This document shows positions 1-46,154 of a stretch of 64,000 nt of DNA, piece by piece (the stretch's first letter is position 1; each line of letters opens with the position of its first letter). The position numbers were made by a program, and so were the translations under genes. Origin of the DNA: Neophaeotheca triangularis (Eukaryota). Location: assembly GCA_054600435.1 (NCBI GenBank), contig BAAIJX010000032.1, forward strand, positions 62,001-126,000. Reading direction: 5' to 3'. Below the pieces are notes generated by a model. That model saw only the letters and a program-made list of their open reading frames with translations, made no database searches and was not told the origin of the DNA.

Positions 1-1599
1 AGGATCTTGTAGGATCCCGCCAAAATATTTCGCCAGCTCATTGAAGATCTTCATACTAGGGACGATGTCATTACGTGGGCTAACTAGTAGACTGTTATAG
101 AGAACAGGTAACTACTAGCGACACCTACCTATACCGCTAACTTGAGAGCCTTAGTACTATTAGTAAGCTTAAGCTCTTCTAGAGGTTAGCGCGCCGATCG
201 CATAGTCGACAACCTAAATAAGGTAGCTAAAGTCGATAGTACGGAACCTAAAGGTCGAGGAAATGAGTCTAGAACTAGAAAACGCAGCTAGGAGAAGCAG
301 GCTTAGGGTAAGAAGCATTAAGGAAGATAAAAGCGTTAAAGCTAAAGGCGCTAGACTCTAGCTCTAACCGTCGTCTCGGTATAGCTCACTATGTGAGCGT
401 AGATCCTTTTCCTTTTCCTTTTACTTTTACTCTTGCTTATAGGTAGTGGGTAGGGGATCGGGCTATATGCTCGAAATAGGGCTATAGCGTTTTAAAGGTA
501 TCTACCTTGAATAACCTTCTAGAGCTTGGTTAGGCCTCGTGGTCTACTTCGTAAATGTCTGCGTTTAGGGGTGTGAGCATGAACGGAACCCTATGAAAAC
601 AAAACTAAAACAAATTATAGCTAGCTCTAGGGCGGAAGTTGCTAGACACTCTAATAGTAAGTGGGATGAGTGTGAAAACTCGAAGTAATGGCGGAGGCAG
701 GAGGGTATAGGAGGGGGGGGTATGAGTAGGGATAGAACACAGCAAAAAAAAAAAAAAAAAAGGGAAAGACCACTCTTAGCTAGTAGGTAGAGGCTTTAGT
801 CGGTGACGCCGAATAGTGATGACTAGGAGGAGAGGCATAAGCTCCGGTGTAGGTAAGCGCGCGATATGGCAGCAAAAACAAGACAAAAACAGAATATAGG
901 TAGGGTATAGAGATAGCGATGGCTGCTTTAACGGGACCTTGCTTTCTAGGTAGGAAACAAAGTCGGGCGCGAGGGTGATATCTGAGATAGTAATGAAGGG
1001 CGTTAGTGGTTTAGTACGAAAAGGTCGGCCGCCTAGTGGCGAAGAGGAGGGAATTATGCTGTGAGTAAGGAGGCCTTGGGTCAAGTAGCCGTTATACGAG
1101 GGAAGAAGGAGTAAAGAGACACTACCTAGTGTAGCAGCAATCTACGGGTTTGCTACGAGCATAACAGAAGCCTAGAAGGTACGTTGTCGCTTATCTAGAG
1201 AGTTTCGAGCACTCACTAATACTTGTCATCTAGTAGGAATATTAACTACTCTACCTACTCGACAAATTAACTAGACTGGGGAGACTAAGCTCTCTTGAAG
1301 CACTTTTAGCTCTTTCCGACGCCTGCAGCTATAGACCGTAGATGCTCGTTACTAGGCCATCACGACTTAGTTGTTCCGAGCACTATTACCCGTGTGACAT
1401 CTTCACGTTAGAACAACAATTTGGCGGTACTAGTACTTAAGACAAGATATACTCGAGAGGTAAGCCGAACATTGTAACCTAGTGAGTAATCATTAAGCCA
1501 AGATCCTCGATGTCTCCTGCACTATACTCATATCGTGAAGCCGCTACCTTAAAACCCCCCCCCTACTCGACCCAAACCCCCTTAAAGCACCACCGTATC

Positions 1600-2559
1600 A
1601 TGGGCCCTACACGCTAGTTTTTCGGCACGCGCGCTAGCTACCCCTACGACTATGACCGCACTCCCTAACAGGCCTCTATAGCTACCGACCACTTCCGTAC
1701 CGACCGCACTAGCCCCCTCTACTAACCTAGCGTCGACGGCCTCAGCTTAACTCTCTAACAAGATCTCGACGAAGCTCGTAACGACGATAGCGAAACACTA
1801 GAATATAGTGCTTCCGCCTTTGTCCTTAACAGCAATGCTTTGGTCGAGCTTATCCCTCCCGTTATCGGTCCCTACGCTACTAGAGCTTAAAGCCTAGCAA
1901 CTCTATAGCTACTAAAGACCGGCCTAACCCTTCCTTAAGCTTTATCGCCTAGCTACAAACTCTCCTAAGCGTTATACTTTCGAACAGACGAGTTTTCATG
2001 ACATGCTGCGACATGGTAACACGATTACGATAAACACGAGCGTCAGCTTAGCGCTTCGAGCTAGCCGAGCCGTCTCACGAAGGCACTATCCGGCCTCTAA
2101 ACGGAACGACCTAGATCCGTTACGCTAGGGTAATACCTCACTACTTTTAGCTATACGAGCAATCTATCTCGCTAACCTAGCGGTAGCTAAATACTAAAAT
2201 ATCGCCTTAACCTCGTATTAAGGGCTACACCTAGCTAAGCTGTACTGTTAGTAACAGCATTCGAAAACCTTCAAGAAGCTTCTCGAGTCCTAGTATCGCT
2301 TATGGAAACTGAGCTTATGGCGTATTACTGACCTATAATCGCCATCATTCTATGTCGAGATCTCAAACATAGCTGTAGGCAGTTACAGGTTCCTTTAAAA
2401 GGCCTTTAAGTCAAGTAGCTCACATGCCTAGTGCTTCTCGCGCAATTCAGGGGGTAGGACACTAGAGGCTTTACCGCTACCCGAAGACCATACTAGGCTG
2501 CCTAGACTAGCCTTAGGTAGTTAGGAACAGGATCAGGTATGCAGAATATGTGCTAATAG
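1600..2559 (+). pseudogene. RIP-inactivated ORF of ~320 codons, unknown product
   Basis: ATG at 1600 opens a protein-like frame (MGPTR*FFGTRASYPYDYDRTP...AVLLVTAFENLQEASRVLVSLMETELM...) with stops mostly TAA/TAG plus two TGA, all explicable by C>T or G>A. True end uncertain. Confidence 0.5.
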
Positions 2560-2849
2560 GAGTGTAGGGAAGACAAGAGTCTAGAAAAGGTACTTTGCGC
2601 CATTAATAGCGCTATAGGTAGAAGGATCACGCTTAGTAGATAGTAGTAATTGATGAATAGTAGCAATTGATGATGAAAAATCAGCCCAAGTTCTCATAGA
2701 CTCTCTCTAATGTAATGCTTGTAAACATCGCTAATTTGTAGTATACAAATAACTACCCCCGGTCATAGCTTATAGATATAGTTAATGAGACGACCAATCT
2801 CACGTTGTGAAGCTAATCTATACAAGCGTAGAATCTAACTAACTATTTA

Positions 2850-4620
2850 CTGTAAATGCATAAGGTCTCCTTCTAATCTACACAGTGTTCACTTGCTCCC
2901 CGTTCTATCTCATAACTAATGAACCTCGGGTAGACCACATGTGTTACGCCTTAGTAGCGTGGCGGTCTCGCGAAGTAATAGCGTAACAACCGTTAACGGG
3001 CGTCTATCTTAGGTAGGAAATGGCACGACAGCTATCGCCTCTACGCTCTCTCGACAGAAAAGAGTATGCGTCGTAGTGTCCTGAAGTGTAAGGTGTAGTC
3101 GCTAGTTATGAACGCGTGCTATCGGTAGCTGTCTCGGACGACTTCGCCCGCTACCTCATAGATAAGCGATTTCGTTCTAGCTAACATCATCAACTATATG
3201 TGTATGATGAGCTAAGACTAAGTCACTAAGCACTAGTCGGTAGTCGGATCTGCTTGGAAAGGCGCTACTTTAGGAGCCTTAACATCTAGCCGGGTGCTAT
3301 AGACGGTAAGTCCCGATGACCTATAAGCTGTAAAGCAGGCACTTTCGTAGGTAGATAGAAAGTCGTAGCATAGGTTCGGCCTCTAATGTGCGTCTTAGAG
3401 AGAGAAGAATGACACCCACATACATGTGTACTACGCCGGAGAGTCACTTCGGTTATTAGTAAAGAGTGCTTCTAGCGGTAGGCCATGAAAGAAGGTGATA
3501 TGCTCCGTGACGAAAGAAACATAGGAAGTGTGAATTTGTCGTATCTTCTATCGTAACTCTAGTACGGTATACATTTCCTAGTGAACTGGCGTACCCGCCA
3601 TTAGTGAATTGGGTGCCTAGAGCGACGCGGTGCTAACATGTAGCAGCTTTAGCGTTTCTTCGTATACTTTCGAGCTCTACGGCTAAGCTTGATCTAGTAA
3701 TCTATCTGGCCGGTATCCCTAATGTGGAGGAGATAGTTACTAGGGCGTTTATTCGGGTTACGGTAGCACTACCTATACGGCAGTACTACTCTACGAGTGT
3801 AGAGAGGCACCTTTGTAGCGGGCCGGAGGGTTCCCGTACGACGTGAGTTGTTGTAGGTAGGTCTACTAGAGATACGCGCCGGATTACTTCGAGTGGCAAG
3901 ATCCCGACAAAGCTAGTGGTTAGATCGAGCATTGTGGCGAAAACCATGGCAATGCCTTACGCTGTCCTACTAGAGACATCACTAATAAGGGTTTGGCCTC
4001 GTCGATCTCGAAGGAAATGTAGTCCGTTAGCTGTGATCTTAATGTCGTAGTAGATTCTAATTGATACTCTAGATAGTGATGAATAAACCAATCGCGACGA
4101 CTAGGTAGTTAAGGTGTTTTACTAATGGTCTAGCATATGAGTCGTAGTGACTTCCTTGAAGATTACTAAGTGGTCGTCGCTCCTAAGGCCCGGGAAACAT
4201 TGATGCCCCACATAGCTCTAAGCCGGTTTGTAGGTCATCCTCGGAAACCCCCTCTAGGCTGATCTGTTTAAACATAACCCTATCCCCTACCCCTACCCCC
4301 CCCCCTCCTTATCTCTCTTCCCTAGGTAGGTTAGATGTTCCTTTCCTAGGATTACAGCCTTATCTATAACCCTCTCGACAAGATGTTCTGGAGCCTACCC
4401 CTTCTAGATCCGCGCATCTACTACCCATCTCCTAGTATAGGCAGCCTACTATCAAGTCGTCCTTTCGGTCGACGAGGTGGATACGACGGTTACTCTACTA
4501 GTATAGAGGTGCTCGTAGGTTGTATTCCTAGTGCTAACGTGCTCGTAGGTTACTTATCGGTTACGGAGGTAGATGCTATAGTTGCTATACCGGTGCAAAT
4601 GTGCGTGTTAGTTACTCTCT
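2850..4620 (-). pseudogene. RIP-inactivated gene relic, unknown product
   Basis: One minus frame reads as plausible protein when stops are read as Q/W (RRGGGRGRG...LRAMWGINVSRALG...RDWFIHHYLEYQLE...YEETLKLLH...IHTSYVSFVTEHITFFHGLPLEALF); possible short intron near 3383-3423. Boundaries approximate. Confidence 0.4.
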
Positions 4621-5003
4621 ATTAGTCATGTAAACGTTAGTTGCTTTACCGGTCGCGGAGGTAGATACCTTAGCTACTAAGTCGGTCGTAAAGATGAATC
4701 GCACGTTGGTTTCTCTTTCGGTGAAATGTAGGTAGATGCTACGGTCGCTCTATTAGTCGTAGAAGTAGATAGCATAGTTGCTTTGTTGATTAGATAGAGG
4801 TAGAACTCATAGTTTTTGATTGGTCGCGGAGGTAGATACCCTCCCTTAGTCGAGGGGGTAGATGGCATAGCTACTCCCTTCGCGGAGGTAGGTAGTATAG
4901 GAGTCCTATCGCTTACGGATGCCATGATTGCTTTGCCGGTCGAGTTGCTTTACTAGTCGCGGAGGTGCTCAATCGTTGCTCTATTAGTCGTAGAGGTAGG
5001 ATC
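4489..5003. repeat. Degenerate ~30-33 bp tandem/clustered repeat
   Basis: Recurring variants of GTTGCTTTACCGGTCGCGGAGGTAGAT near 4489, 4549, 4640, 4744, 4777, 4812, 4943 and 4975. Confidence 0.65.
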
Positions 5004-5659
5004 TAATGCCTATAGGGATGGTATCTACTACCGCCTCGCCTACCGTTTCGTCTTAGGCAATCTCTCTTTTCGGGAATCGTCCGCTAACCTACTATATCCC
5101 CTACCGACTCTACTATGACCCTAGACTCCGTCTCTATTAATGTAACCTCACCTACTATTAACTCTCACGTCTATATACCCCTCTAAGAAGAAGGGCCTTT
5201 CCTTTCCATAACGCTTTCGTCTCTACTAACTAGGCCACCACAAGAATACCTACTATCCCCTCGACTCCTATGGTATCCCTTCCCCCTTCTATCCCATTTC
5301 ATTCCCTAGGGTTCCTTAACCCCCCCCCCCCCCAAATTAATCCCCTCCCCTCCCTAGGCCATCCGACTAATCCTATTCCCTCCCCCTCCCCCGGTCTATT
5401 AAATTTACCCGCGCCCTCCTCTATCTAACCCCTCCCCCCCTCCCCTTACGCCTCTACGGCCCCTTCCTATTAGTCTTCCTGTCGGCGATATCTAATTCTA
5501 GAGTATCGTGCCGAAGTGCTTCAAACGCTTCGCAGCTTAGAGGAGGAGCCTGTTTAGTGGACCTAGTTCGAAGACAGTGGGATCTAACCTTCTTTAGGTA
5601 GTAAAGTCAAGCATGACTCCCCGCGCCACGCTGTGTAACAAGCCGAACCTGACGTGACA

Positions 5660-8600
5660 TTAGCTATTAAAACGGAATATTGTTAGCAAGAGGTAGTAAC
5701 CATTATATATGAAGCCCACTAGATTCGTTGATCTGTGCTAGTGACGATTAGGATCAGTCTAGCGGCAACTAGGGTATACCTGAGGAGCGAGCGCAGCTCC
5801 GGCTTGTGCTTTATCTAGAAGTTTGAAAGTATTACGCTGTATTCGCAATTCTTTCAACCATATAATGGCGGAATCGTTATAATGCCCGGCGTGTTACCTA
5901 GAATAATCCGTCTTGATGTGATAACATAACGTTTGAATCGTCAAGAATTACATGTACTTGAGATCCGCTTCTAGGGAGCGGTTACTACTATTAGTAGGGT
6001 AGAGTTTTTGCAACGTTAAGCTACTAGTGTGTCTATACATTAGACCAAGCGATCTCAACGAAAAACTGTACTAGGTAATATTATGCTAGTCGTCGTGTAT
6101 TCCCTAGTATACTAGCATATACTTACGAGGTAATATGGACTTGGGCACGACTGTTATGATATAGGCGTCCAGGTAAGGATAGAATTGGTCTATAAATGAG
6201 CCCTAGGAATCGTTGTCGGTAGTGATAGCGTCCTATCCGCACATCAAGAAGAGCACCTTAACCGGTCTCTACCTGTCACGAGAATACTTGACTAGATCTT
6301 CTAGTAACGCTAGCAGTAGGCCATCCCTCGCTTTACTCGGAAAACTGTCGTTACTCGTTCCCGGATGACGGATGTAAGGCATCTAGACAGGCCCTAGTGT
6401 TAGTAAAGCCGCGATGTTATCGGGATTATAAGATTAAGGATACAGTTCTCGACAATTAAAAGCCAAGTAGTGAGTGCGTATTAAGGTCTCAGCCCTCTTT
6501 TCAAGTTCTACGACGAGCTCATTCTTCTTATACTCTCTACTTGACCTCATGACTAGTATTGTGACATCGAAGTCTTTATTGATGTCGTTAGAGTCGAATA
6601 AGAGTGGGCCGGAGTCATTTCGCCTAAAAAGTGTGATTAGGGTAGAGGTATTATAGGCACGGCCGAAGCTATACGTCTGTTTAGAGCGAATGCCATATCG
6701 GTTACCATAAACTGGATCCTCAATTATCTTAAACGTGGGATCGCAACCGTCAAGTATAAGCTGTAGGGTTTCTCTTAGTTTAGGTAGCGCGTATAGACTA
6801 CTACTATAACTAGCCTATACAGCCTAATGTATCTCGTGTAGGCTGCTAGGGACATCATGTGACTTTAGAAAGTCGTAAATACGACTACGTATAAGGATCT
6901 TGCTTAGAGGCGATACTACATCACTATTACTAGTAGTACTAGGGGTCGTTCCTATCGTGGGAAGATTAGCTAGAGGCTTACTAACGACTAGCTCGTAAAA
7001 CTTCTAGAGCGACTACTATCTTAGTCGTTAGCCATGTTCGATAGGATTAGCTGCCTCGACGACTAGAGCGCCGGTTACGTGTTTCCTACAACTTTCCATG
7101 GTATACTAGCTAGAGTCCTTAGCGTTACTTTACTATAGACACGCTTTATTCAACACCTACTAGTTCACGCTTGACTAACCAAGACTCGATAGATTTGTAA
7201 GCGCTAAGACCTATGGGGGGACATCGTCCGGACCATATCTAGGGCTAGCGGAGTCGAATGCATAAAGCGAACTAATCTCATCATGAACGCTTATTGTCAT
7301 GTGGACCTAATGTGATGCTCCCTTGTTATAGATAACATGTAGATGAGTAAGACCTTATGGTAGGTTAAGCAGCTCAAGGCTAGCTTCTTATGATCTAGTA
7401 AACCATTCATGCCAAGATATAGGCATATAGCCTCGAGAGAACTCTGCCTAGAGTCGATTAATTACAGCCGGGTTTAGGAAGACGTCGTGACTAGGACGTA
7501 ACTACACGGATTCGCGGATCTAATTTAGGTGATACATGATAATAGTATCGTTAGCTTCACTCTCTAGATTGTTAGGCAGGACCACTACCATTTCAAGTAG
7601 CGAAGGTAGTGGTTAGTCCTCGCGGTCTACGAAATGTAGCGAAGTAGAGTTGTTATACCTAGACCTTACTAACTACGCTCTCGAGAGCTGCGTTTCTTAT
7701 AGTAGCGTATTGTAAGATCTCGAGAGCTCCTCGAAAGCCTTATTCTAAGGCGGGCTAGTGGTCTGCTCTTTAAGAGGATTATCACTTCCTAGAGTGTTCC
7801 TAATAGTAGGCCCTTTATTAGTAAGCTCCGCTACAACGCTAGTACGCGTTTGCTCGGCGGGTCTAGTCACGGCCCTAGGCGTATAAGATAGCTCGATGGG
7901 CGAATTAGCAATCCCTAAAGTGTTGCTATCCGTAGGCTCGTGGGTAGCACCTAACGCTATAATGATATCCCGTATTTGCTCGGGTATAATTGTCGCTCCG
8001 GGCGTATAGGACGCTTCAGATCCTTTCTACGTATCGCTTATTTAACGGCTTCTTGTCTCGTTCTCTATACCTATAACGCTAGCGCGCGTTTGCTCGGTAG
8101 GTCTAGTCACGGCCCTAGGCATGTAAGATGGCTCGATGGGCGAATTAGTAATCCCTAAAGTGTTGCTATCTGTAGGCTCGTGGGTAGTACCTAACGCTAT
8201 AATGATATCGCGTATTTGTTCAGGTGTAATTGTCGCTCCGGGCGCATAGGACGCTTTAGATCCTTTCTACGCATCGCTTATTTGACGGCTTCTTGTCTCG
8301 TTCTCCGTACCTATAGCTCTAACGCTAGCCTATGACTTCTCGGAGGGAATTGATCGCCTAGGAGAGCGCTCGCGGTTACGCTCTCGTCCACGTCTTTCTT
8401 TAGAGACGGCTCTTACGTTAGCGTGTACGTCGTTACCTTCCGGCTTGCCTTAGGTTACGAGGATGCTATTCGACACCCCGAGACGGCCTTATTAGTTCAT
8501 GATCTCCGTAGCGATAGTAGGAAAGCTAGTCTTAAGGGTACGTAACACTTACGCGGACGACGAGTTACGTAACGCGAACCTAACCTATACATTGTCTACC

Positions 8601-8760
8601 GAGTTCGGCATTACTCTAGCGCGGATACTCTACTTAATGCTTATAGAAAGCTTCCTAGACTTAGTGTGTTTACCTATCTTTCTTTGCAATGTGTTACCCA
8701 ATAAATTGAGGACAAGTATGCCGCAACGTACGCTCGCCGTAGCGAGTAAGACAGCGCTAA
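5660..8760 (-). pseudogene. RIP-inactivated ~1,000-codon multidomain gene: Ulp1/C48-like domain, winged-helix-like segment, resolvase-like domain, GATA-like C4 zinc finger
   Basis: Single frame without frameshift; all in-frame stops I read are TAA/TAG. Motifs: ANDTIIMYHLN (~7550), NKGASH(W)VH (His 7310-7312), LYAFDS (Asp 7253-7255), (QQ)SNAKDS(G) (Ser 7112-7114), TILVMRSS (6539-6562), PGTS..ARDGLLLALLEDL (6293-6364), VLFLMCG(W)DAITTD (~6215-6256), C-x2-C-x19-C-x2-C after de-RIP (5696-5776). Start codon uncertain. Confidence 0.7.
7835..8315. repeat. 240-bp direct tandem duplication (in-frame, 80 codons) inside the dead ORF
   Basis: 7835-8074 aligns without gaps to 8075-8314; by hand 20 differences, 19 of them transitions. 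Confidence 0.95.
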
Positions 8761-9388
8761 CGCTTAGGAGACCTAAGGCTAACGTGTCTAGAGGGGAGGA
8801 GAGGGGAGAGAGTGCGCGACGTACCTAGTAGCGGAATACTTCTTCTAGTTAGTAAGGAAAAGCGACAAGGCACACAATATAACGGCGACGAGGCCGAAGT
8901 ATGTAGCTAATGATGTTGTTGTCTTAGAACAATCATTGTGCCCTAGTCCCCGTGTATATTAGGGGATGAAGTCAACTAATTAGCGTGCTCCACTCTAACT
9001 TAACAGCGTTAAGAAGGTAGTTACGACTACCCTCTTTCTTCCTCTACTAGTCTCGTATACAAACAGAATGGACCGAGAGGTATACAACCTACCCTTATTA
9101 GTCGCACTTCAGCTCTCTACAATCAATCCATGCGAAATGTATTTTCGTTCGGTATCGATTAGTCGACTAGGAGAGATGCTAACTGTTATATGAAAACGAC
9201 GATTGTCTTCACGTACTTGCCTATTGAATTCATCAGATAATATGTGTTCCGTCGAGTCCGTCTGTTAATCGATCGTGACTTCCGTAGTAATGCCTTCCGC
9301 CTCTATCGTAGCCAGCCTACCTATCTCTTAATAGTGTTAGCTTCCCATTATAAGACCAAATCACTCGATCTAAACGGGTACATCACTA

Positions 9389-10215
9389 TCGACATAAGCT
9401 GGGAAGGCTCTTCCTCTTATATCCCTTATCGACATGAGCTAGGAAGGCTCTTCCTCTTCTTCTCGCGCGGCTATGTCGACATAAGCTAGGAAGGCTCTTC
9501 CTCTTACATCCCTTATCGACATGAGCTAGGAAGGCTCTTCTTCTTCTTCTCGCGCGGTTATGTCGAAACGAGCTAGGAAGGCTCTTCTTCTCGCGCAGTC
9601 ATGTCGAAACGAGCTAGGAAGGCTCTTCTTCTCGCGCGGTCATGTCGAAACGAGCTAGAAAGGCTCTTCTTCTCGCGCGGTCATGTCGAAACGAGCTAGA
9701 AAGGCTCTTCTTCTCGCGCGGTCATGTCGAAACGAGCTAGAAAGGCTCTTCTTCTCGCGCGGCCATGTCGAAACGAGCTGGAAAGGCTCTTCTTCCTCTT
9801 ATATCTATTGTCGACATGAGCTAGGAAGGCTCTTCTTTCCTCTCTTCCTCTCGCGCGGCTATGTCGAAACGAGCTAGAAAGGCTCTTCTTCCTCTTATAT
9901 CCGTTATCGACATGAGCTAGGAAGGCTCTTCTTTCCTCTCTTCCTCTCGCGTAGCCATGTCGAAACGAGCTAGGAAGGCTCTTCTTCTTACGACTATTAA
10001 TTGTCGACATGAGCTAGGAAGGCTCTTCTTTCCTCTCTTCCTCTCGCGCGGCCATGTCGAAACGAGCTAGGAAGGCTCTTCTTCTTACGACTATTAATTG
10101 TCGACATGAGCTAGGAAGGCTCTTCTTTCCTCTCTTCTTCTCGCGCGGCTATGTCGAAACGAGCTGGAAAGGCTCTTCCTCTCGCGACTATTATTAACAT
10201 GAGCTAGGAAGGCTC
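9389..10215. repeat. Higher-order tandem array, 19 copies of a ~25-bp core
   Basis: Core TCGA(CAT/AAC)GAGCT(A/G)G(G/A)AAGGCTCTTC; successive periods 40,47,40,47,41,41,41,41,41,43,53,43,53,44,53,44,53,40. Confidence 0.97.
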
Positions 10216-10687
10216 TCTCTCTCTCTCCGTCTATACGAGCACATCGATAGACACTAGTCTCTATTGTCGTTAAGGAAATGCTAGGTAGACTAAGGGAACT
10301 AGACAGCGTGACATGTTTGTATCTCCGCCCTTGGCCGTAGTAGGACGAACGAAACTACAAAGCTTCGTTAGAGCTAATCTTTCCTGAAAGAGAATGCGCA
10401 ATGTTACACTACTATCTATGACCTCTCCTCTATGCTAACATGAGCTCTTGAAGTACCATCGTATCGACTTATCATCGGCGTATAATCAATTCATTTAGTC
10501 GGCTAATGAGTGCGCGAAGGACGAGTTAGGTCTGTTTAGTGATGATGACCTCTCTACTTGCCTTAATAACACAGCTTATCAGGTCGGCAGTCGGCGCTTG
10601 AGAGCTCCGAAGGACAGTTTGGGACTTGTGGTCCAGCTTGACGACACGCGCTGCCATTGATGAAAGGACCTTGACACCAACCCACTC

Positions 10688-10716
10688 CCACCACCACCAC
10701 CACCACCACCACCACC
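10688..10716. repeat. (CCA)n microsatellite in the STT3 5' leader
   Basis: About 9 CCA units just upstream of ATG 10732. Confidence 0.9.
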
Positions 10717-10731
10717 CATTCCGCCGCCACT

Positions 10732-13271
10732 ATGGCTGCCGATACCAAATCCAAGAGCATCGGCGCTCCCTTTTTCGAGGGGGAGAGCGGACGAAACACC
10801 CGTGGTCTGCTACGCTTGATCATCTTGTGCACCATTGCTGGTGCTGCTGTAGCGAGCAGATTGTTCTCCGTTATCCGCTTCGAGAGTATTATCCACGAAT
10901 GTCGGTCATGCCCAATGCAATCACTACCAAGAATATGAACTGATGTGTTTGTTCAGTTGACCCCTGGTTCAACTTTCGAGCAACAAAATACCTGGTCAAC
11001 CATGGCTTCTACGACTTCTGGGATTGGTTCGACGACCGTACGTACACTCAATGGTTGTAAAGAGACAACGGAGGGAAAGACATACTAATACTGTGTCCCA
11101 CAGGAACATGGCATCCCCTTGGTCGCGTCACAGGAGGTACCCTCTACCCCGGCCTGATGGTCACCAGCGGTGTAATCTACCACGCCCTCCGATTCCTCAC
11201 CTTCCCCGTCGATATCCGCAACATTTGCGTACTTCTTGCGCCAGGCTTTTCCGGCTTCACCGCCGTAGCTTCCTACCTCTTTACCAGTGAGATGAGCGAC
11301 TCACCGAGCGCAGGTCTTCTCGCCGCAATCTTCATGGGCATCGCTCCCGGTTACATCAGCAGGTCTGTTGCTGGCAGCTACGACAACGAGGCGATTGCGA
11401 TCTTTTTGCTGGTCTTCACCTTCTACCTTTGGATCAAGAGCGTGAAAAATGGCAGTATGATGTGGGGTGCGCTCACGGCGCTCTTTTACGGCTACATGGT
11501 CAGCGCTTGGGGAGGTTACGTCTTCATTACGAACTTGCTGCCACTGCACGCTTTCGTGTTGATCTGCATGGGACGCTTCAGCCCGAGGCTGTACGTCAGC
11601 TACACGACGTGGTACGCACTGGGCACGTTAGCGAGCATGCAGATTCCTTTTGTTGGGTTCCTGCCAATCAGGAGTAGCGAGCACATGTCTGCCCTGGGTA
11701 TGTTGAAGTTCTTTCCGACTTGACCGAACGCAGCTACTAACACAGCTCAGGTGTCTTTGGGCTCATGCAGCTTGTCGGTTTCACGGAATATATCCGTGGC
11801 CAACTCCCCTCAAAGCAGTTCCAAACCTTGCTTTATGCCATGATTCTGACCGTGACCGGTGTGGCGTTCGGTGGGCTCGTCTTGCTCACTGTCTCTGGCA
11901 CTATCGCCCCCTGGACTGGTCGTTTCTACTCCCTATGGGACACCGGTTATGCCAAGATTCACATCCCAATCATTGCATCCGTCTCCGAGCACCAGCCAAC
12001 CGCCTGGCCAGCCTTCTTTTTCGACCTGAACATGCTGATTTGGTTGTTCCCAGCGGGCGTGTACATGTGCTTCCGCAGCTTGAAGGATGAGCAAGTCTTC
12101 ATCGTCATCTATGCCGTGCTCTCGTCCTACTTCGCCGGCGTCATGGTTCGCTTGATGCTGACCCTTACACCGGTTGTTTGTGTCTCTGCGGCTATCGCAC
12201 TGAGCCAAGTTCTCGACACTTTCCTTGTCGCCTCGACGCCGGACAGCGCCGCCGCCGAGGAGAACTCCAAAAAGTCTAATGGCAGCGCAAACGGCTCAAC
12301 AGACGTGCAGCAGAAGATCAAGGCTGTGATCCCGGACACCCTGCGCAGCACACGCACACCACTGGTCGGCATCTACTCGTACCTGTCCAAGTCCCTTATT
12401 GCTGGAGCCATCACATCCTACCTACTGCTGTTTGTGCTGCACTGCACATGGGTCACCAGTAACGCCTACAGCTCGCCTTCCGTGGTCTTGGCTTCACGCC
12501 TACCAGATGGCAGTCAACACATCATTGACGACTACCGTGAAGCATACTACTGGCTACGTCAAAACACCAAGCAAGACGCCAAGGTGATGTCGTGGTGGGA
12601 TTACGGCTACCAAATCGGTGGCATGGCAGACCGCCCAACTCTCGTTGACAACAACACCTGGAACAACACCCACATCGCCACTGTAGGCAAGGCCATGAGT
12701 AGCAGAGAGGAAGTCTCGTACCCAATCATGCGCCAGCACGAAGTCGACTACGTCCTTGTTGTCTTCGGTGGTCTCCTAGGATACAGCGGCGACGACATCA
12801 ACAAGTTCCTCTGGATGGTTCGTATCGCTGAAGGTAAGCACAACGAGATTTTCCGGCATCCCATCGATGAAAGAAGGATCCACTAACATTATAACTGCAG
12901 GCATCTGGCCCGATGAAGTCAAAGAGCGCAACTACTTCACCTCGCGCGGCGAGTATCGCGTGGATGACCAAGCCACCGAGACCATGCGCAACAGCCTCAT
13001 GTACAAGATGTCATACCACAACTACAACGCGCTTTTCCCGGCCGGCCAAGCCACCGACCGCGTCCGAGGCAGCCGCCTACCCGCCGAGGGCCCCGAGCTC
13101 AGCACTCTCGAGGAGGCTTTCACGAGCGAGAACTGGATCATCAGAATCTACAAGGTAAAGGACTTGGACAATTTGGGCCGGGAGCACGGCGCTGTTGCTG
13201 GCTTTGAGAAGGGGCAGAAGAAGAAGAAGGCGGGCAGGAGAAAGGGGGCGAGGGTTTTGAGGGTGGAGTAA
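10732..13271 (+). CDS. STT3: Oligosaccharyltransferase catalytic subunit STT3
   Basis: Exons 10732-10900, 10957-11037, 11104-11697, 11751-12833, 12901-13271 with GT-AG introns; motifs [45 protein letters not shown]. Confidence 0.98.
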
Positions 13272-32954: not shown

Positions 32955-33969
32955 AGCGAATGAGTGGCTGTAGCCCAAGGCGACGTGGGTGGTGAGCCGG
33001 ATTCTGACACGTTAAAGCTCTTCTGCTGTAGGTTTGGAGGTTAGAAAAGGGTGAGGGCGCAAAGAAGACGGGCCGGCCTCGACAGCAAGCAAAACAGAAG
33101 AGTCAAGCTATCTGTACTTATGCTGCGGTAGGTGTAGTATTCACCACTGAAAGGGGGCTTGAGAGCGCGTGCTGTGCTGAGCGATTATGCGGCGACCATG
33201 CATGTGCGTGCGTTGGCTAGAGTGGTGAGGTTATAAGTCAGGGTGGAAGCAGAGAAGCCCAGCCGCATAAAGACAATAGAACCTTGAAGGTGAGGTGGGT
33301 GCGAATGGTTGTGGCGGCCGCCATGCGAGGAAGCTTAGCCGAGAACGAGGCTTTGTCAGCAAGGGCTGTCCGACAAACACGTGACCCTAGCAGACATGAT
33401 CTCGGGAGTTTAGCATTATAAGGTAAGGAAGGTAACCTGTTAGGACTTGGCAGATTAAGAGCATGAGCAGTGGCCAGAGAGATACTACTTGTAGTCAGGA
33501 GGTAGAAAATTACTTGGCCCCATTCTCGGATCCTCGCATTCGTACGCCTACCCAGTACTGTACCTACTAATAGCACCTTGGGTACGGTAAGGTACCTACT
33601 GTAGTAGTATACCTCGAGTATACCTAGGTAGGTAGTTTTCCTTGGCAAGACGTCAGCCCATTCGTTTCCAAGTACAGGTACCCTAGGTAGGTACCTACCT
33701 TACCTCAGCAACCAGCTTGTCTGTCCAGAACACGAGCTACCTACTACCTACTACCTACTACCTACTACCTACCTACTACCTACAACTACCTCCATTACCT
33801 GCTCTCCTCCCGTACTCGTCCTCTCCATTGCGATCGGCTAGCTCTATACAAGCTGGTGCTTCCTTCACAACAACTTCTCCTGCAACTGGAAGCAATAACG
33901 GAACTTGTGCCCTAATCTGATTGCCTGAATTCGTCCAGCGCCGGGTCCCTCCCATTATCGTAACCCATC

Positions 33970-36612
33970 ATGGCAACTCTCAACACATCCTCCAACGGGC
34001 CCTCCATAACACAGAGCTACCAAAAGGTAGTCCAGTCGCCCCCGTCCTCTGGCTCGGCTGCCTCTTCCTCAACCTACGGCCAATGGGCGCTATACAGCGT
34101 GCAAGCCCCTCTTGTCAGCGCCTTCCAGGCTGAATCTGGCAAGGAGAGTGTGCTCAAGGTTCAAACGACGGGCGAGGGCGAGCTCATTGATCTGATCGAA
34201 GATTTCTCCGATGGCCGCATCCAATTCGCCTTTGTCAAGGTCAAAGACAGCAATTCGGGCCTGCCCAAGAATGCCCTCATCTGCTGGTGCGGTGAAGGCG
34301 TTCCGGAAAGGACAAAAGGCTACTTCACCTCGCATATGACGGCCGTGGCTAAGCTCTTGCATGGCTATCACGTCCAAATCACTGCGAGAAGCTCTGAGCA
34401 CTTGACTCCCGAAGCCATTATGCAAAAAGTGGCAGACTCGAGTGGAAGCAAATATGGCGGCGGAAGCGATGAGGCCTCCGCACCTAGCGACGGCCCACCT
34501 CTCCCAGCTGCTTCCAAGCCAAAGCCGGCGATGCCAACCAAAACCTTCGGCGCGAGCGGTGGTGGTGGAATGTACTCGCTGGGCGGCAGAGCAGCTCGAT
34601 CGCAAAAACAGAGCTCTGACAATGACGGCTGGGGAGAGGACGCGCCTGAAGTTACACGGTCGCAGCTGGAGAAGGTGGCACCAGCATACCAGCCGACCAA
34701 GGTCAACATGTCCGAGCTTCAGTCCCAAAAGCAGACATCAAACTACCAGGCACCCGAGAGAGGCAATGGTGGAGCAGATGTAGTCAAAGGCGGCTACCAA
34801 CCCGTCGGCAAGGTCGACATCAACGCCATCCGACAGCAGGCGAAAGAGTCTGGAAACTTGCAGGATGACCGACCGACAACAGTGAAAGGCACGTATGAGC
34901 CGGTAGGGAAGGTGGACATCAACGCTATCAAAGCCAAAGCACAAGGCGCGCCTGCACAAGCCGAGCCTTCTCCCCCAGCGCAGGAAGAGGAACGCCCGCA
35001 GAGCCTTGCAGAACGCTCAGCTGCCTTTACTTCTACGGATGCGCCTTCTGAGCGTATGACCAGCATGCCAAAGCCAAAGGTCGCCAACCGTTTCGGATCG
35101 CAAACCAGCTCCTTTGCCGGCACCAAAGCACCCACCCCAGGTGGCTTTCCCGAATCCAAACCAGCCGCAACAGGTGCACCTCCAATTGGTGCCGCGAGTC
35201 GAACGTTCGCTGACGAAGGTGGAAAGACGCCTGCGCAAGTTTGGGCGGAGAAAAAGGCGCGCGAGCGTGGTGACAGCAACCCACCGGCGCCTCAGGTAGC
35301 ATCCAACACCGGGGCCTCGGGCACCGGGCCTGCCTCACCAATCGCAAGCCAGCAGAGTGGGCAATGGCAGTCTGGCTACGAGGGCAAGAAGTGGGGCGTT
35401 CAGATCCCCACCCGCACTGGCGGCAGCGGTGTCAGCGCGCAGAAGACCGGCCAAGACGAGCCACCGGCGCAAGACGAAGCTCAAGAAAACGAGCCCCCAA
35501 CAGGTGGCGTTGGCTCTATCCGCGACCGCTTCGCAGGCGCACCACCCATGGGCGCACCATCTCAAGCCCCAGCACCCTCGGCACCTTCGCCACCCGCTGC
35601 GCCCTCCGCGCCCTCCCCACCACCCCTCGACACAGCCTCGAAGCCCAACGCCGGCGCTCGCGGAGTACCTATGCCAGGCCTACCCCAGCGCCCCGCCGAG
35701 GACGAAGAGGAGGAGGAAGAAGAGCAGCAGCGCAACGTGCCCCGCGAACAGCACCAAGAGCTGCCCCCACCACCGCAACCCGCTCACCCCCGCGACGAGT
35801 CCCCCGACCAAGAAGACGAGCCCTACCCCCGCGGCTCCCCCATCCGCGTCGCCATGCCCGTCGCGCGCGACCCCTCTCCCGCGCCCCTCCCAGCTCCAGA
35901 AGCCGAAGGCCCCCGCTCCCCTCCTCCCATGCCCACTGACAGCATCAACGACGCCATCAGCGCAAACAAAGAAGCCGACATGGAGCCAGAGCCGCGCATC
36001 GAGGAAAACGATCCCGCCCGCGGCGCAGGCCAAGCGGCCGCCACAGGCAATTTCGGCCAAGCGCAAGATGTCCGTGGCCAAGGCAACGGCGGCGGAAAGT
36101 CAGCTGTCGCGCAGTACGACTACGAGAAGGCCGAGGACAACGAGCTGGAGCTGCGCGATGGCGAGAGGATCAGCAACATCGAGATGGTGGACGAGGACTG
36201 GTGGATGGGGCAGAACAGCCGGGGCGAGACGGGCTTGTTCCCTAGCAACTACGTGGAGCTCGTCGATGACAACGACGGTGGTGCTGGTGCTCCTGCATCT
36301 CAAGCCGCTGCTCCCACGCCTGCTGCGGCACCTGCTCCTGCTGCTGCCCCCGCCCCTCCTGCCGGGGGCAAAACGGCCGTCGCACAGTACGATTACGACG
36401 CCGCTGAGGACAATGAGTTGAGCTTCCCGGACGGTGCTACGATTACTGGTGTGGTGAGTTCAAACCCCTGACGTGTTTGATTACGACGAACAAAGGATTT
36501 TTGACTGATTGATGTGCGTTTATAGGAATTCCCAGACGACGACTGGTGGTTCGGCCAGTACAATGGCAAGAGCGGCTTGTTCCCTGCCAACTACGTCGAG
36601 TTGAACAGGTAG
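33970..36612 (+). CDS. ABP1: Actin-binding protein Abp1/App1 (ADF-H domain, Pro-rich linker, two SH3 domains)
   Basis: ADF-H (DFSDGRIQFAFVKVKD...WCGEGVPERTKG); SH3 AQYDYEKAEDNEL...DEDWW...GLFPSNYV; second SH3 completed by intron 36454-36525 (EFPDDDWW...LFPANYV). Confidence 0.93.
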
Positions 36613-43427: not shown

Positions 43428-46154
43428 CTGTCCCCCATGGTGAGCAAAAGTGGATGGCTGAGAGGCTCTGCTGCTGCTACTGGTAGGTAGGTAGGTAGGT
43501 AGTAGTCTCCGATGTCGGGACACTGCTGCCTGACGACAACAGGCCAGGTGAGTTGAGATTGGAAGACGACGGGAGGAAGGTCAGGTCATCCAAGTTACGA
43601 GAACGAGAACAAGAACAAGATCAAGGACAAGATCAAGGCAGGCACAGTCGTTGGAAGAGGAAGAAGGCGCGGATGGCTACCCAAGTTAGCTATAACGAGC
43701 AAAGCTTGGAAAACTATAGGTACCTTAGCTAAGGTACTACTACTTTTTAGTAGCTAAAGGTAAGGTACAAGTAGGTAGTACAGTACTAACAGTAGTAGTA
43801 AGCATGGCTCTGGCGCAAAGTAAGTTTGCAGTAATAATTAGGTCTTGACGACGACGGATTCTAGACCACCATTTACCTTAGTTTGCATGTGTGTGATGGG
43901 TGTGATGTGTGGAGCTGAAGCAGTCCTTAATTTCGCTCGAGTCAACAGGTTACAGGTTATAGCACTACTAATACTACTAACATGGCAACAGCAGGACAGG
44001 ATGAGTTAGTTAGGTAGAGCGCTGATGAGCTAAGGTAAGGTACGTGTAAGTTAAAGATCAGCGAGCGTTGGCCAGGTAGGTACTTAGTAGATACCTAGTA
44101 GGTAGTACCTCCTACCTTGAAAAAGCTTGTCAGGGGGCCATTGGCCAATTTGGCAGTATAAGGTACAAGCCGGCACCTAAATAATAATAATAATAATAAG
44201 AGTGAAGAAAGCTAGGGTCGTACGTTTTATTAGCCGTCTTAGCGCGGCGTGGTATTTGATTTGATCGATTTGATTAGGTAGGTAACATTACCTAGATATT
44301 GCACTAGATCCTGATTGAACCGCAGGACAACCTTGCCTTTTTTTCTATACTAACAGTACTAGTCCGCAAATTCATCCTTACCTTAAGGCACTTGTATAAA
44401 GTTTGCGACGAATCGCCAATTGGCGACCTAACGATCGTAGTGCATTTCCAATTCCCGGGTTTTGGATTTGATGAAAGATACTTGGAAGTGTACATAACTC
44501 ACTTACATTTGGCTTCATTAGGTAACAACCTGACAGGATTCCCATTGTCTTATCTGTCCGGGAGGGAAAACAGCCGTAGATCGATGTGCAGGGATTTGCA
44601 TCCTATAGGAGTCGCTTTTGGTTTGATTAAAGCTGAGGTGGTAGTAGTACACGTATAGGGTATTTATCGTATTTTTAATTATTGATTGTATATAATAGGT
44701 ACTAGGTAGATGACATGCAGAGATTGACCACTATCGAAATGGGCGTTAGGTGGGGTAACCCTGTAATAAGATGCTGTGCAGGGTCTATAACTTATCAGGA
44801 GGTACGAGGATCCATCAGCATATATAACTTAAAGGTTGTCAAAGAACTCCGAGCGCCTGTGTGACCAGCTAAAAGTTCCAGCCTAGCCGACCAGGTTTTA
44901 GCGTGTCATCGATACTACTACTACTACATACAGTAAGTAGTGAAATATTATATCTCGGCCTCGAACGTTATTTCGTCTAATTTCAGATTCATTTGCAAAG
45001 TGCACGCCTATCTGTGAAGCCTGCTTGTATCTTATGTCGTCGTAGCTACGAGACTGGTCGAGATAACACTTCATTACGCTTATACATGCACTATGCATGA
45101 CGCGGAATAGTCGCCGCTCGCGTCCGGGTTCTACGAAAGGGTGCCCAGATGAGCGATCAGATGCAGTACCGGTACTTATTAAGTACCTACTTGCACCAAA
45201 CTTGCCCGTGCTTCACTGCTCACTATTTGTGCTCTTTTCCGAAATCTGACAGCTCACTCTTGATCTGTCGCCCGTGAACGATATGGCGCAGGCTCGGCAT
45301 CGAAGTACGGCATGCAGCTTGTTGCGAAAGGGAGTGGAATGTCGGCACATGGCAGCAGGCTGTTGTGAGATGCCCGTCGTCTGTCACAGTCTCTATGCGA
45401 GCTCTGCTTTCGAACCGTGCCCGCTGAAAGAGAGTTCACTGGTGAGGCGGACGAACAGGCGGACGAACAGTCACACAAACGCCTGCCTCGGAGCTAGAAA
45501 CGCTGTCAAGCATTCGCTAACACCGCCGTCCTCGGTGATGTTTGCAATGTTGGTCTTGGATCGTGGGTGTAGACGCCCAGTAGCGTTTTGGACAAGTGTT
45601 CTCCAGCTACCTATACTTTCCATATAGAGTATGCCGCGATCAGAATGCCTTCTGGCGGCTGCTTCGGAGTGATTCTGTGCTTTGGCAACATCACACGTGC
45701 TGGCACATTTCGATTTACATATCTTGATGAAGACCATAGTGGCATGTAAGTTGGTCGAATCGTGAATCACCGAGAGTTGTGAATGAATAAACCTTGAAGG
45801 AACTGGATGTATCGTGGGCACGTGCCCTGATGTGGATGCTTACTTAAGCGTGTCGGGGAAGCGCGACACTTCACCGAGCGCGGCAGTCACAGTTGCAAGT
45901 TCACATGTTGCGTCAAGCTCGCAGCAGTCTGCTGCCTCATCCCATTCCAACACACGACCTCAAGGAGTTCGCCTACGACTGCGACGGCAAACAACTCTCC
46001 GTGAACTGCGACATCCGCAGACGCTACCCTCGATCCGTATTCGAAGCGACAACCTCACCGCATGAGCGCACACGACAGCGCATAAGTGAGCTCTAGGTGC
46101 GGAGGTCGAGAGACGGACAACGGACAACCTCTCCCACAGCACCAACTCACAACT

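Follow-up and report, generated by a model that had tools for sequence, protein, structure and literature searches.

A putative resolvase-fold domain with an invariant Arg-x-Ser motif in a degraded Ulp1-protease family gene of Neophaeotheca triangularis

Ulp1/C48 protease domains occur in the transposon proteins of plant KI-MULEs and of fungal Kyakuja-Dileera-Zisupton elements, both of which carry transposases of the DDE/RNase-H type. The serine recombinases of eukaryotic elements, where Bao and Jurka (PMC3627910) survey them, are of the IS607 type only and belong to a few protist and giant-virus elements. For the Tn3 resolvase, the active-site results of Olorunniji and Stark (PMC2794168) single out Y6, R8, S10, D36, R68 and R71 as crucial, with mutations of Y6, D36, R68 and R71 strongly lowering catalysis, and class S39, D67 and R45 as conserved, not catalytic. 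Here we describe a locus of the fungus Neophaeotheca triangularis within a 64,000-nucleotide stretch of contig BAAIJX010000032.1 (positions 62,001 to 126,000), which we call the window and whose own numbering is used throughout. A first-pass annotation had read minus-strand positions 5900-6580 as a resolvase-like catalytic domain. We found that repeat-induced point mutation (RIP) has destroyed the gene of which this segment is the central domain, and that the relic is almost certainly a RIP-killed member of an undescribed Dothideomycete family of Ulp1-protease proteins. The central domain, hereafter domain X, is on its predicted models best described as a divergent resolvase-fold domain carrying an Arg-x-Ser (R-x-S) motif, a description to which we assign a probability of roughly 0.55-0.6.

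The gene relic and its protein family

Positions 1-10000 of the window have a GC content of 0.43-0.48, TpA/ApT ratios of 1.2-2.45 and (CpA+TpG)/(ApC+GpT) ratios of 0.51-0.72; within 1-9000 these two RIP indices are 1.44-2.45 and 0.51-0.72, compared with about 0.3-1.1 and 1.0-1.8 in most bins of the remaining window. A RIP-type degraded block at 1-9450 holds the relic, continues past the left edge of the window and is covered by a single 13,833-base contig of sequencing run X1. We read the relic on the minus strand in the frame with codon starts at 7099-3k (5000-8000 read and translated), which gives the same peptide strings as those quoted in the first-pass annotation, including the R-x-S serine placed at 6539-6541 (codon AGT, 6541-6539). 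By number, the stops of this frame do not differ from chance (34 over 666 codons, versus 37 +/- 6 in shuffles), and we therefore dropped openness of the frame as gene evidence and used the distribution of TGA codons instead. The TGA-free frame runs over 1255 codons (5168-8932, minus strand), with its earliest in-frame ATG at 8611; this is the maximal extent of the former open reading frame and need not coincide with its true ends. All 60 stops from 8932 to 5168 are TAG (39) or TAA (21), with no TGA at all, compared with 9-20 TGA per span in the five other frames and 21.4 +/- 4.6 (minimum 7) in 1000 shuffles. Such a profile indicates a once-open frame killed by RIP, that is, by CpA-to-TpA mutation.

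The positions of individual stops can be compared with the homologues described below. At 6385-6383 and 6205-6203 the relic has TAG in columns where 11/11 and 10/11 homologues, respectively, hold Trp, and a further TAG, at 6235-6233, occupies the W/F/Y column of a G-W-D-G motif; these matches support reading the stops as W. Along with Trp to TAG at the two conserved Trp columns, the RIP-type departures of the relic from family-conserved residues comprise His to Tyr, Asp to Asn, Gly to Ser, Ala to Thr and Thr to Ile, and some further departures are not of RIP type, for example Gly to Ala in D-G. The relic carries 60 stops and has Ser for Cys in the Ulp1 motif; it is a dead copy without function.

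As a query we used the read-through translation of 7699-5702 (P0002), in which the 5900-6580 segment corresponds to residues 374-600. HMMER searches with this query against 1.84 billion representative proteins gave 10 matches at E <= 1e-3, well beyond what chance would produce, the best at 2.2e-18 and 7.6e-14, with homologue lengths of 647-1869 aa and with the strongest stretch of the best matches at residues 335-527. A profile search (alignment A1, 'longer' lengths) returned six matches, one of which (P0013) was new. The named members are hypothetical proteins of the black Dothideomycete fungi Hortaea werneckii, Elasticomyces elasticus and Vermiconidia calcicola, and the others are JGI or Logan records; KAI6880914.1 and KAI7552578.1 of Hortaea werneckii are examples of intact members. 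The relic is collinear with one homologue, P0003, in two blocks (phmmer independent E-values (iE) of 1.3e-12 and 2.2e-15), and the hidden Markov model (HMM) of the full-length family finds just two matches in the 64 kb, at 7609-6941 and 6928-6119, both in the same frame. These homologues, the RIP indices and the absence of TGA among the stops bear out the earlier view of the locus as a eukaryotic gene relic. Pfam gave no match on the relic, and in the six read-through frames of 1-12000 it found only STT3 at about 11.1-12 kb. No relevant match and no recombinase came from a PDB sequence search with the relic and the family profile; a word-indexed protein search returned nothing for the relic and only P0003 itself for P0003 900-1330; and scans of metagenome contigs found no relatives. 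Full-text literature searches found no description of such a family, which we conclude is undescribed, lineage-restricted and made up of proteins of 650-1900 aa.

Members of the family share an order of a basic N-terminal region, the Ulp1/C48 domain, a linker, domain X, a long helix, and zinc ribbons with C2H2/GATA fingers; a PHD finger before the Ulp1/C48 domain and a Zn2Cys6 cluster after it occur in some members. Peptidase_C48 (PF02902) was found at E <= 0.16 in 8 of 11 homologues, with two above the Pfam cut-off (residues 633-732 of P0003, for instance, scored 27.2 bits against a cut-off of 20.7), and lies 250-380 aa upstream of domain X, a protease context that is absent from the first-pass annotation. 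The other Pfam matches are to Zn2Cys6 (P0007), GATA (P0003), C2H2 (P0004, P0006, P0008 and others) and PHD (P0012), most of them scoring under the Pfam cut-offs, and no Pfam family covers domain X in any member.

In the relic, the Ulp1/C48-like part lies at 6941-7609 on the minus strand, as identified by the family HMM and by the phmmer alignment of P0002 29-239 with P0003 531-759 (iE 1.3e-12). There is no direct Pfam C48 match; the H and D positions of the catalytic triad are present, with H followed by a TAG at the H-W position and the D in YAFDS kept, and the Cys position is Ser. The D-D-C-G protease motif of the family reads D-S-S here (7120-7112, minus strand), and since the TCT codon at the Cys position is not explained by RIP transitions, the loss of the protease nucleophile from this copy may have preceded RIP or been separate from it. 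A 240-nt tandem duplication (7831-8310, minus strand; two copies, 91% alike) lies in the N-terminal part, where the relic is poorly conserved; read in frame, the duplication is an 80-residue peptide repeated.

Domain X and its predicted fold

Domain X, which all members share, is about 210 aa long and spans 6026-6667 on the minus strand, where the domain HMM (positions 3-213 of 381) gives an iE of 1.8e-55 with a profile whose source sequences include the relic itself. The full-length family HMM (positions 765-1035) covers linker and domain X together at 6119-6928 with an iE of 2.2e-32 (hmmsearch), in one frame and without a shift. In an alignment of 12 sequences (A5; rows 24-34% identical to the first row), the invariant residues are the R and S of R-x-S, an Arg some 15 residues further on, the last Ser of a (E)PG(T/S)S motif, a Leu, the Asp of G-W-D-G-x-T-T-x-N and another Leu. 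All of the following relic coordinates are on the minus strand. The first strand, beta1, ends in R-x-S (DVTILVMRSS, 6539-6568), with R at 6547-6545 and S at 6541-6539, and M-R-S-S-R is coded ATG AGG TCA AGT AGA; the first-pass annotation had made its resolvase reading depend on conservation of this motif, and both R and S are invariant in the 12 aligned sequences. The invariant Arg of the first helix (EKRAET) is at 6494-6496; strand beta2 is followed by (E)PG(T/S)S, whose invariant Ser is at 6353-6355, both residues again 12/12. By element order this Ser would occupy the S39 position. Strand beta3 and the G-W-D-G-x-T-T-x-N motif lie at 6212-6262, where the relic reads CG(TAG)DAITTDN; the D (6232-6230) is invariant, the G is found in 10/12 (A in the relic, 6229-6227), and the T at the putative R71 position (6220-6218) in 11/12.

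Behind these motifs follow a long helix (LEADLKYM.FLTIQTLCYHIKTDYS, 5900-5974), corresponding to helix 222-248 of the second model described below and placed like helix E in the models, and a conserved R-N motif (IQRNTFKL, 5819-5842), whose R and N occur in 90% or more of the rows. Cys clusters around the R-N motif are absent in the relic and in P0010 and present in other members. The C-terminal extension after domain X has Cys clusters in seven members and, in most, a conserved helix with H-x-Q-F-L ... K-L-D-x-S.

We built two AlphaFold2 models from overlapping alignments, model 1 from P0005 839-1235 (11 rows; mean predicted local distance difference test score (pLDDT) 65, with core blocks at 83-96) and model 2 from P0010 803-1095, a compact and divergent member (12 rows; mean pLDDT 63). 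Both predict beta1, helix, beta2, helix, beta3, helix, beta4, beta5, a short helix and a long helix, with beta1 ending at Arg in each case (E43-51/R51 in model 1, E42-48/R48 in model 2). As modelled, this is the beta1-alphaA-beta2-alphaB-beta3-alphaC-beta4-beta5 plus helix E fold of the serine-recombinase catalytic domain. A homodimer prediction for P0010 837-1057 scored 0.00, in a run in which the fold itself was uncertain.

When model 2 was compared with 48,161 representative chains by a search independent of Foldseek, 11 of the 18 top chains were serine recombinases by title, including gamma-delta, Tn3, Sin, TnpX and an IS607-like TnpA. Re-alignment of the Foldseek top 1000 placed serine integrases at ranks 1-6; the original top rows (transaminases and glutamate-receptor domains) had template-modelling (TM) scores below 0.25 and root-mean-square deviations above 11 and were taken as noise. 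As a weaker sign, the highest Foldseek 'prob' value belonged to a serine recombinase in both PDB lists and to an integrase in the BFVD list, where most other high-probability rows were integrases, recombinases or resolvases. For both models the best structural neighbours are serine-recombinase catalytic domains, matched along some 110-150 residues with helix E included, and not the TOPRIM, receiver or NYN/PIN folds that the first-pass annotation had named as the matches that would speak against it. Solved structures of these enzymes include 9dxd_A, Bxb1 (9iu2_A), TP901-1 (3bvp_B), phiC31 (4bqq), gamma-delta (2rsl_A), Tn3 (5cy1_A) and Sin (5c31_A). The alignments start with model residue 41 on chain residue 1 (gamma-delta 2rsl_A and Bxb1 9iu2_A), 42 on 1 (Sin) or 41 on 3 (TP901-1, whose nucleophile we take to be S12), and end at model residues 242-265 and chain residues 122-158, which is helix E. 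From these starts and a gapless strand 1, we infer that R48 and S50 of the model would lie on R8 and S10 (R7 and S9 in Sin).

Active-site positions and alternative readings

Several results weigh against placing domain X among the serine recombinases. Both models have a low mean pLDDT (63-65) and come from 11-12 sequences in overlapping alignments, so that they are not independent of each other. Foldseek gave no match at E <= 1e-3 in PDB or BFVD. Pfam Resolvase (PF00239) had no match at E <= 10 in the relic or in 11 domain segments, nor at E <= 0.5 in 11 full proteins. We also compared A5 with an alignment of 12 phage serine recombinases (A6; Mu Gin, Bxb1 integrase and ten others), in which R7, S9, Q18, R42, P43, D56, D64, R65 and R68 (Gin numbering) are invariant and the Tyr at the Y6 position and Gin S36 nearly so. 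The hhalign probability was 0.05% (0.08% for the core only, E 0.66), both alignments being shallow and secondary structure not being used; the best single local match, over 12 columns, falls on the R-x-S motif (vvR~S on Y~RVSt), a weak sign in favour that was not significant.

The catalytic positions add to these points, with the proviso that residue equivalences come from alignment ranges and element order and not from coordinates. Only R8 and S10 of the crucial Tn3 positions are conserved in the family, leaving four of six that are not. No member has Tyr at the Y6 position (0 of 12; V, I, T or C instead), the R68 position is G in 10/12 and the R71 position T in 11/12, and the apparent D36 position is E in seven, H in two, Q in two (each followed by D) and W in one. 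By element order, the family would keep the R8, S10, S39 and D67 positions and lack Y6, R45, R68 and R71. The first-pass annotation had rightly argued that RIP transitions could not restore the arginines of the D-R-L-x-R motif; intact homologues likewise carry G and T there, and the missing arginines are therefore a family trait and not RIP damage. Of the resolvase-like catalytic domain originally proposed, then, the fold with its R-x-S motif stands, with support that stays at the level of the predicted fold and is modest; serine-recombinase membership or activity does not follow from it.

The absence of any sequence or profile signal to resolvases also suits a different explanation, in which domain X is a look-alike three-layer alpha/beta domain unrelated to serine recombinases, such as a degenerate VWA-like or nucleotide-binding-like one, and R-x-S with the other invariant polar residues serves a SUMO protease associated with chromatin as a site for binding some other ligand or a protein. 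Many alpha/beta folds carry functional residues at the C-terminal end of the first strand, and the ESM Atlas places P0005 875-1065 beside VWA clusters at 0.85-0.90, a further point against a recombinase relationship. An alpha/beta domain followed by Cys clusters is likewise found in VWA plus zinc-finger proteins (Ssl1/p44 and Rpn10), the Atlas resemblance being that of one member. However, the Atlas gave nothing usable for P0010, and with about 99 of 256 features shared the VWA match was rated a lead only. The VWA MIDAS motif is D-x-S-x-S at the end of strand 1; it is absent from the family, whose first position there is the invariant Arg, and the long helix of the models packs like helix E. 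We rejected a VWA domain as the primary reading, the Atlas lead being confined to one of the two members searched, and we regard the look-alike explanation as a whole as rather unlikely.

The four unconserved catalytic positions could instead mean that domain X is a true serine-recombinase descendant that no longer recombines, either a pseudo-enzyme for DNA binding or oligomerization or an enzyme of new chemistry in a host regulatory protein, with RIP of the relic following plain gene or segmental duplication. PHD, GATA, C2H2 and Zn2Cys6 modules, typical of chromatin and transcription proteins, fit such a role, as does the distribution of the family in small clusters, mostly one per assembly, with P0010 identical in four accessions on contigs of up to 303 kb. 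The relic, too, is unrepeated: the full-length family HMM found no second copy in the 64-kb window, there are no long internal repeats, and run X1, which covers the whole window and is its likely source, has flat depth, with only a 165-nt piece at 1574-1738 having a look-alike on another contig (82% alike, 29 differences over 165 nt, on a 25.6-kb contig of X1). Against this, five polar residues that remain invariant at 24-34% identity (to the first row) favour a working pocket over a scaffold, and the RIP block, which measures 9.4 kb or more and lies on a 13.8-kb contig, exceeds one gene in size. Some 90%-identity clusters have their members spread over many short contigs (P0016 on 10; P0017-P0023), as repeated copies would be, though fragmented assemblies would account for this equally well. 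All told, a descendant that has given up recombination seems to us improbable.

On the reading that we favour, domain X would have descended from, or converged on, a serine recombinase. In intact members its invariant R, S, helix-A R, S and D would form a polar pocket acting on DNA delivered by the flanking DNA-binding modules. In what we see as the most likely mechanism, though one less probable than the fold itself, the Ser would attack a DNA phosphate, as in resolvases, and the strand-end Arg together with the family-specific helix-A Arg would supply the positive charge of the canonical R68 and R71, a mechanism that, drawn by analogy with the resolvases, we offer as tentative. On this view a mobile element of low copy number would have the protein as its recombinase, and RIP of this copy would be accounted for. 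What points to mobility is RIP and the extent of the degraded block, nothing more; element ends, a second copy or mobility itself could not be demonstrated, which again counts against a recombinase. The idea that the intact proteins serve a mobile element as active recombinases is attractive, but unproven and on balance unlikely.

Other features of the block and its surroundings can be noted. A single long plus-strand relic at 1300-4400 was considered and dropped, as the stop and TGA profile favours other frames and spans. Two more frames of the block are almost free of TGA (0-1 per 300 codons), at 1-2400 (plus strand, codon starts 2+3k) and about 4200-2700 (minus strand); neither has a Pfam or family-HMM match, and they may be other gene relics. 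Just downstream of the relic, 5250-5500 is of low complexity and, on the minus strand, rich in G with poly-G runs, and X1 contigs have loose poly-C ends at 5320 and 5354. On the upstream side, between the RIP block and STT3, dense tandem arrays occupy 9389-10240, with units of 41, 82, 87 and 97 nt in up to six copies that are 86-97% alike; run X1 breaks into many small contigs there, and the arrays may represent a minisatellite or else the end of the degraded element. The STT3 (oligosaccharyltransferase) gene follows at 11101-13181 on the plus strand (Pfam E 6e-76) and marks the sequence as fungal chromosome. Runs X2 and X3, labelled with the same organism, show about 15% divergence and have alignments from 11101 onwards only; since they cover the STT3 side only, they are uninformative on presence or absence of the block, and their difference of about 15% from the STT3 exons of the window may reflect another lineage or subgenome. 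RIP-like 1-kb bins also occur in otherwise normal sequence at 33001-34000 (TpA/ApT 1.93, GC 0.51) and 44001-45000 (1.31, 0.415).

Comparison with known systems

The IS607-type TnpA proteins of the Fanzor2 elements of Acanthamoeba and giant viruses are bacterial-type, short and paired with TnpB/Fanzor. In contrast, the family described here is fungal, multi-domain and invisible to Pfam, and no Fanzor was seen by Pfam in the six frames of 1-12000. As in KI-MULEs and Kyakuja-Dileera-Zisupton elements, a C48 domain is present, here about 250-380 aa upstream of domain X; no DDE/RNase-H-type domain was detected by Pfam in the frames of 1-12000 or in the 11 full proteins.

The family could in principle represent a new lineage of eukaryotic transposases or integrases of serine-recombinase type, unseen by Pfam, native to Dothideomycetes and fused to a SUMO protease, in which the classical Arg-x-Ser nucleophile is kept and the helix-A Arg has replaced R68 and R71, but we hold this to be quite improbable. 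If it were true, it would amount to a new superfamily of eukaryotic DNA transposons. An active domain X would be a new kind of eukaryotic recombinase (fungal, multi-domain, of resolvase fold and with an invariant Arg-x-Ser) and a natural experiment in which the serine-recombinase active site has been rebuilt without R68 and R71; such enzymes are also interesting as genome-engineering tools. If domain X is inactive or a look-alike, what remains is a conserved domain, so far undescribed, of a Ulp1 protease family restricted to one lineage.

Set beside the serine recombinases themselves, domain X differs in having no detectable sequence or profile similarity to them, in the absence of Y6, R68, R71, R45-P46 and the A..ER..I.ER motif of helix E, and in an additional invariant Arg in helix A that has no counterpart in the canonical enzymes. 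It also has about 20 extra residues inserted behind helix A and again between strand 5 and the long helix, and unlike these enzymes it belongs to eukaryotic proteins of 650-1900 aa fused to a Ulp1 protease. The Cys-rich, zinc-ribbon-like segments after its helix presumably bear a loose resemblance to the zinc domain of large serine integrases. As in both the large serine integrases and the small resolvases, the Arg-x-Ser of domain X ends strand 1 of the models, and, as in serine recombinases generally, strands 2 and 3 are followed by a conserved Ser and a conserved Asp, respectively.

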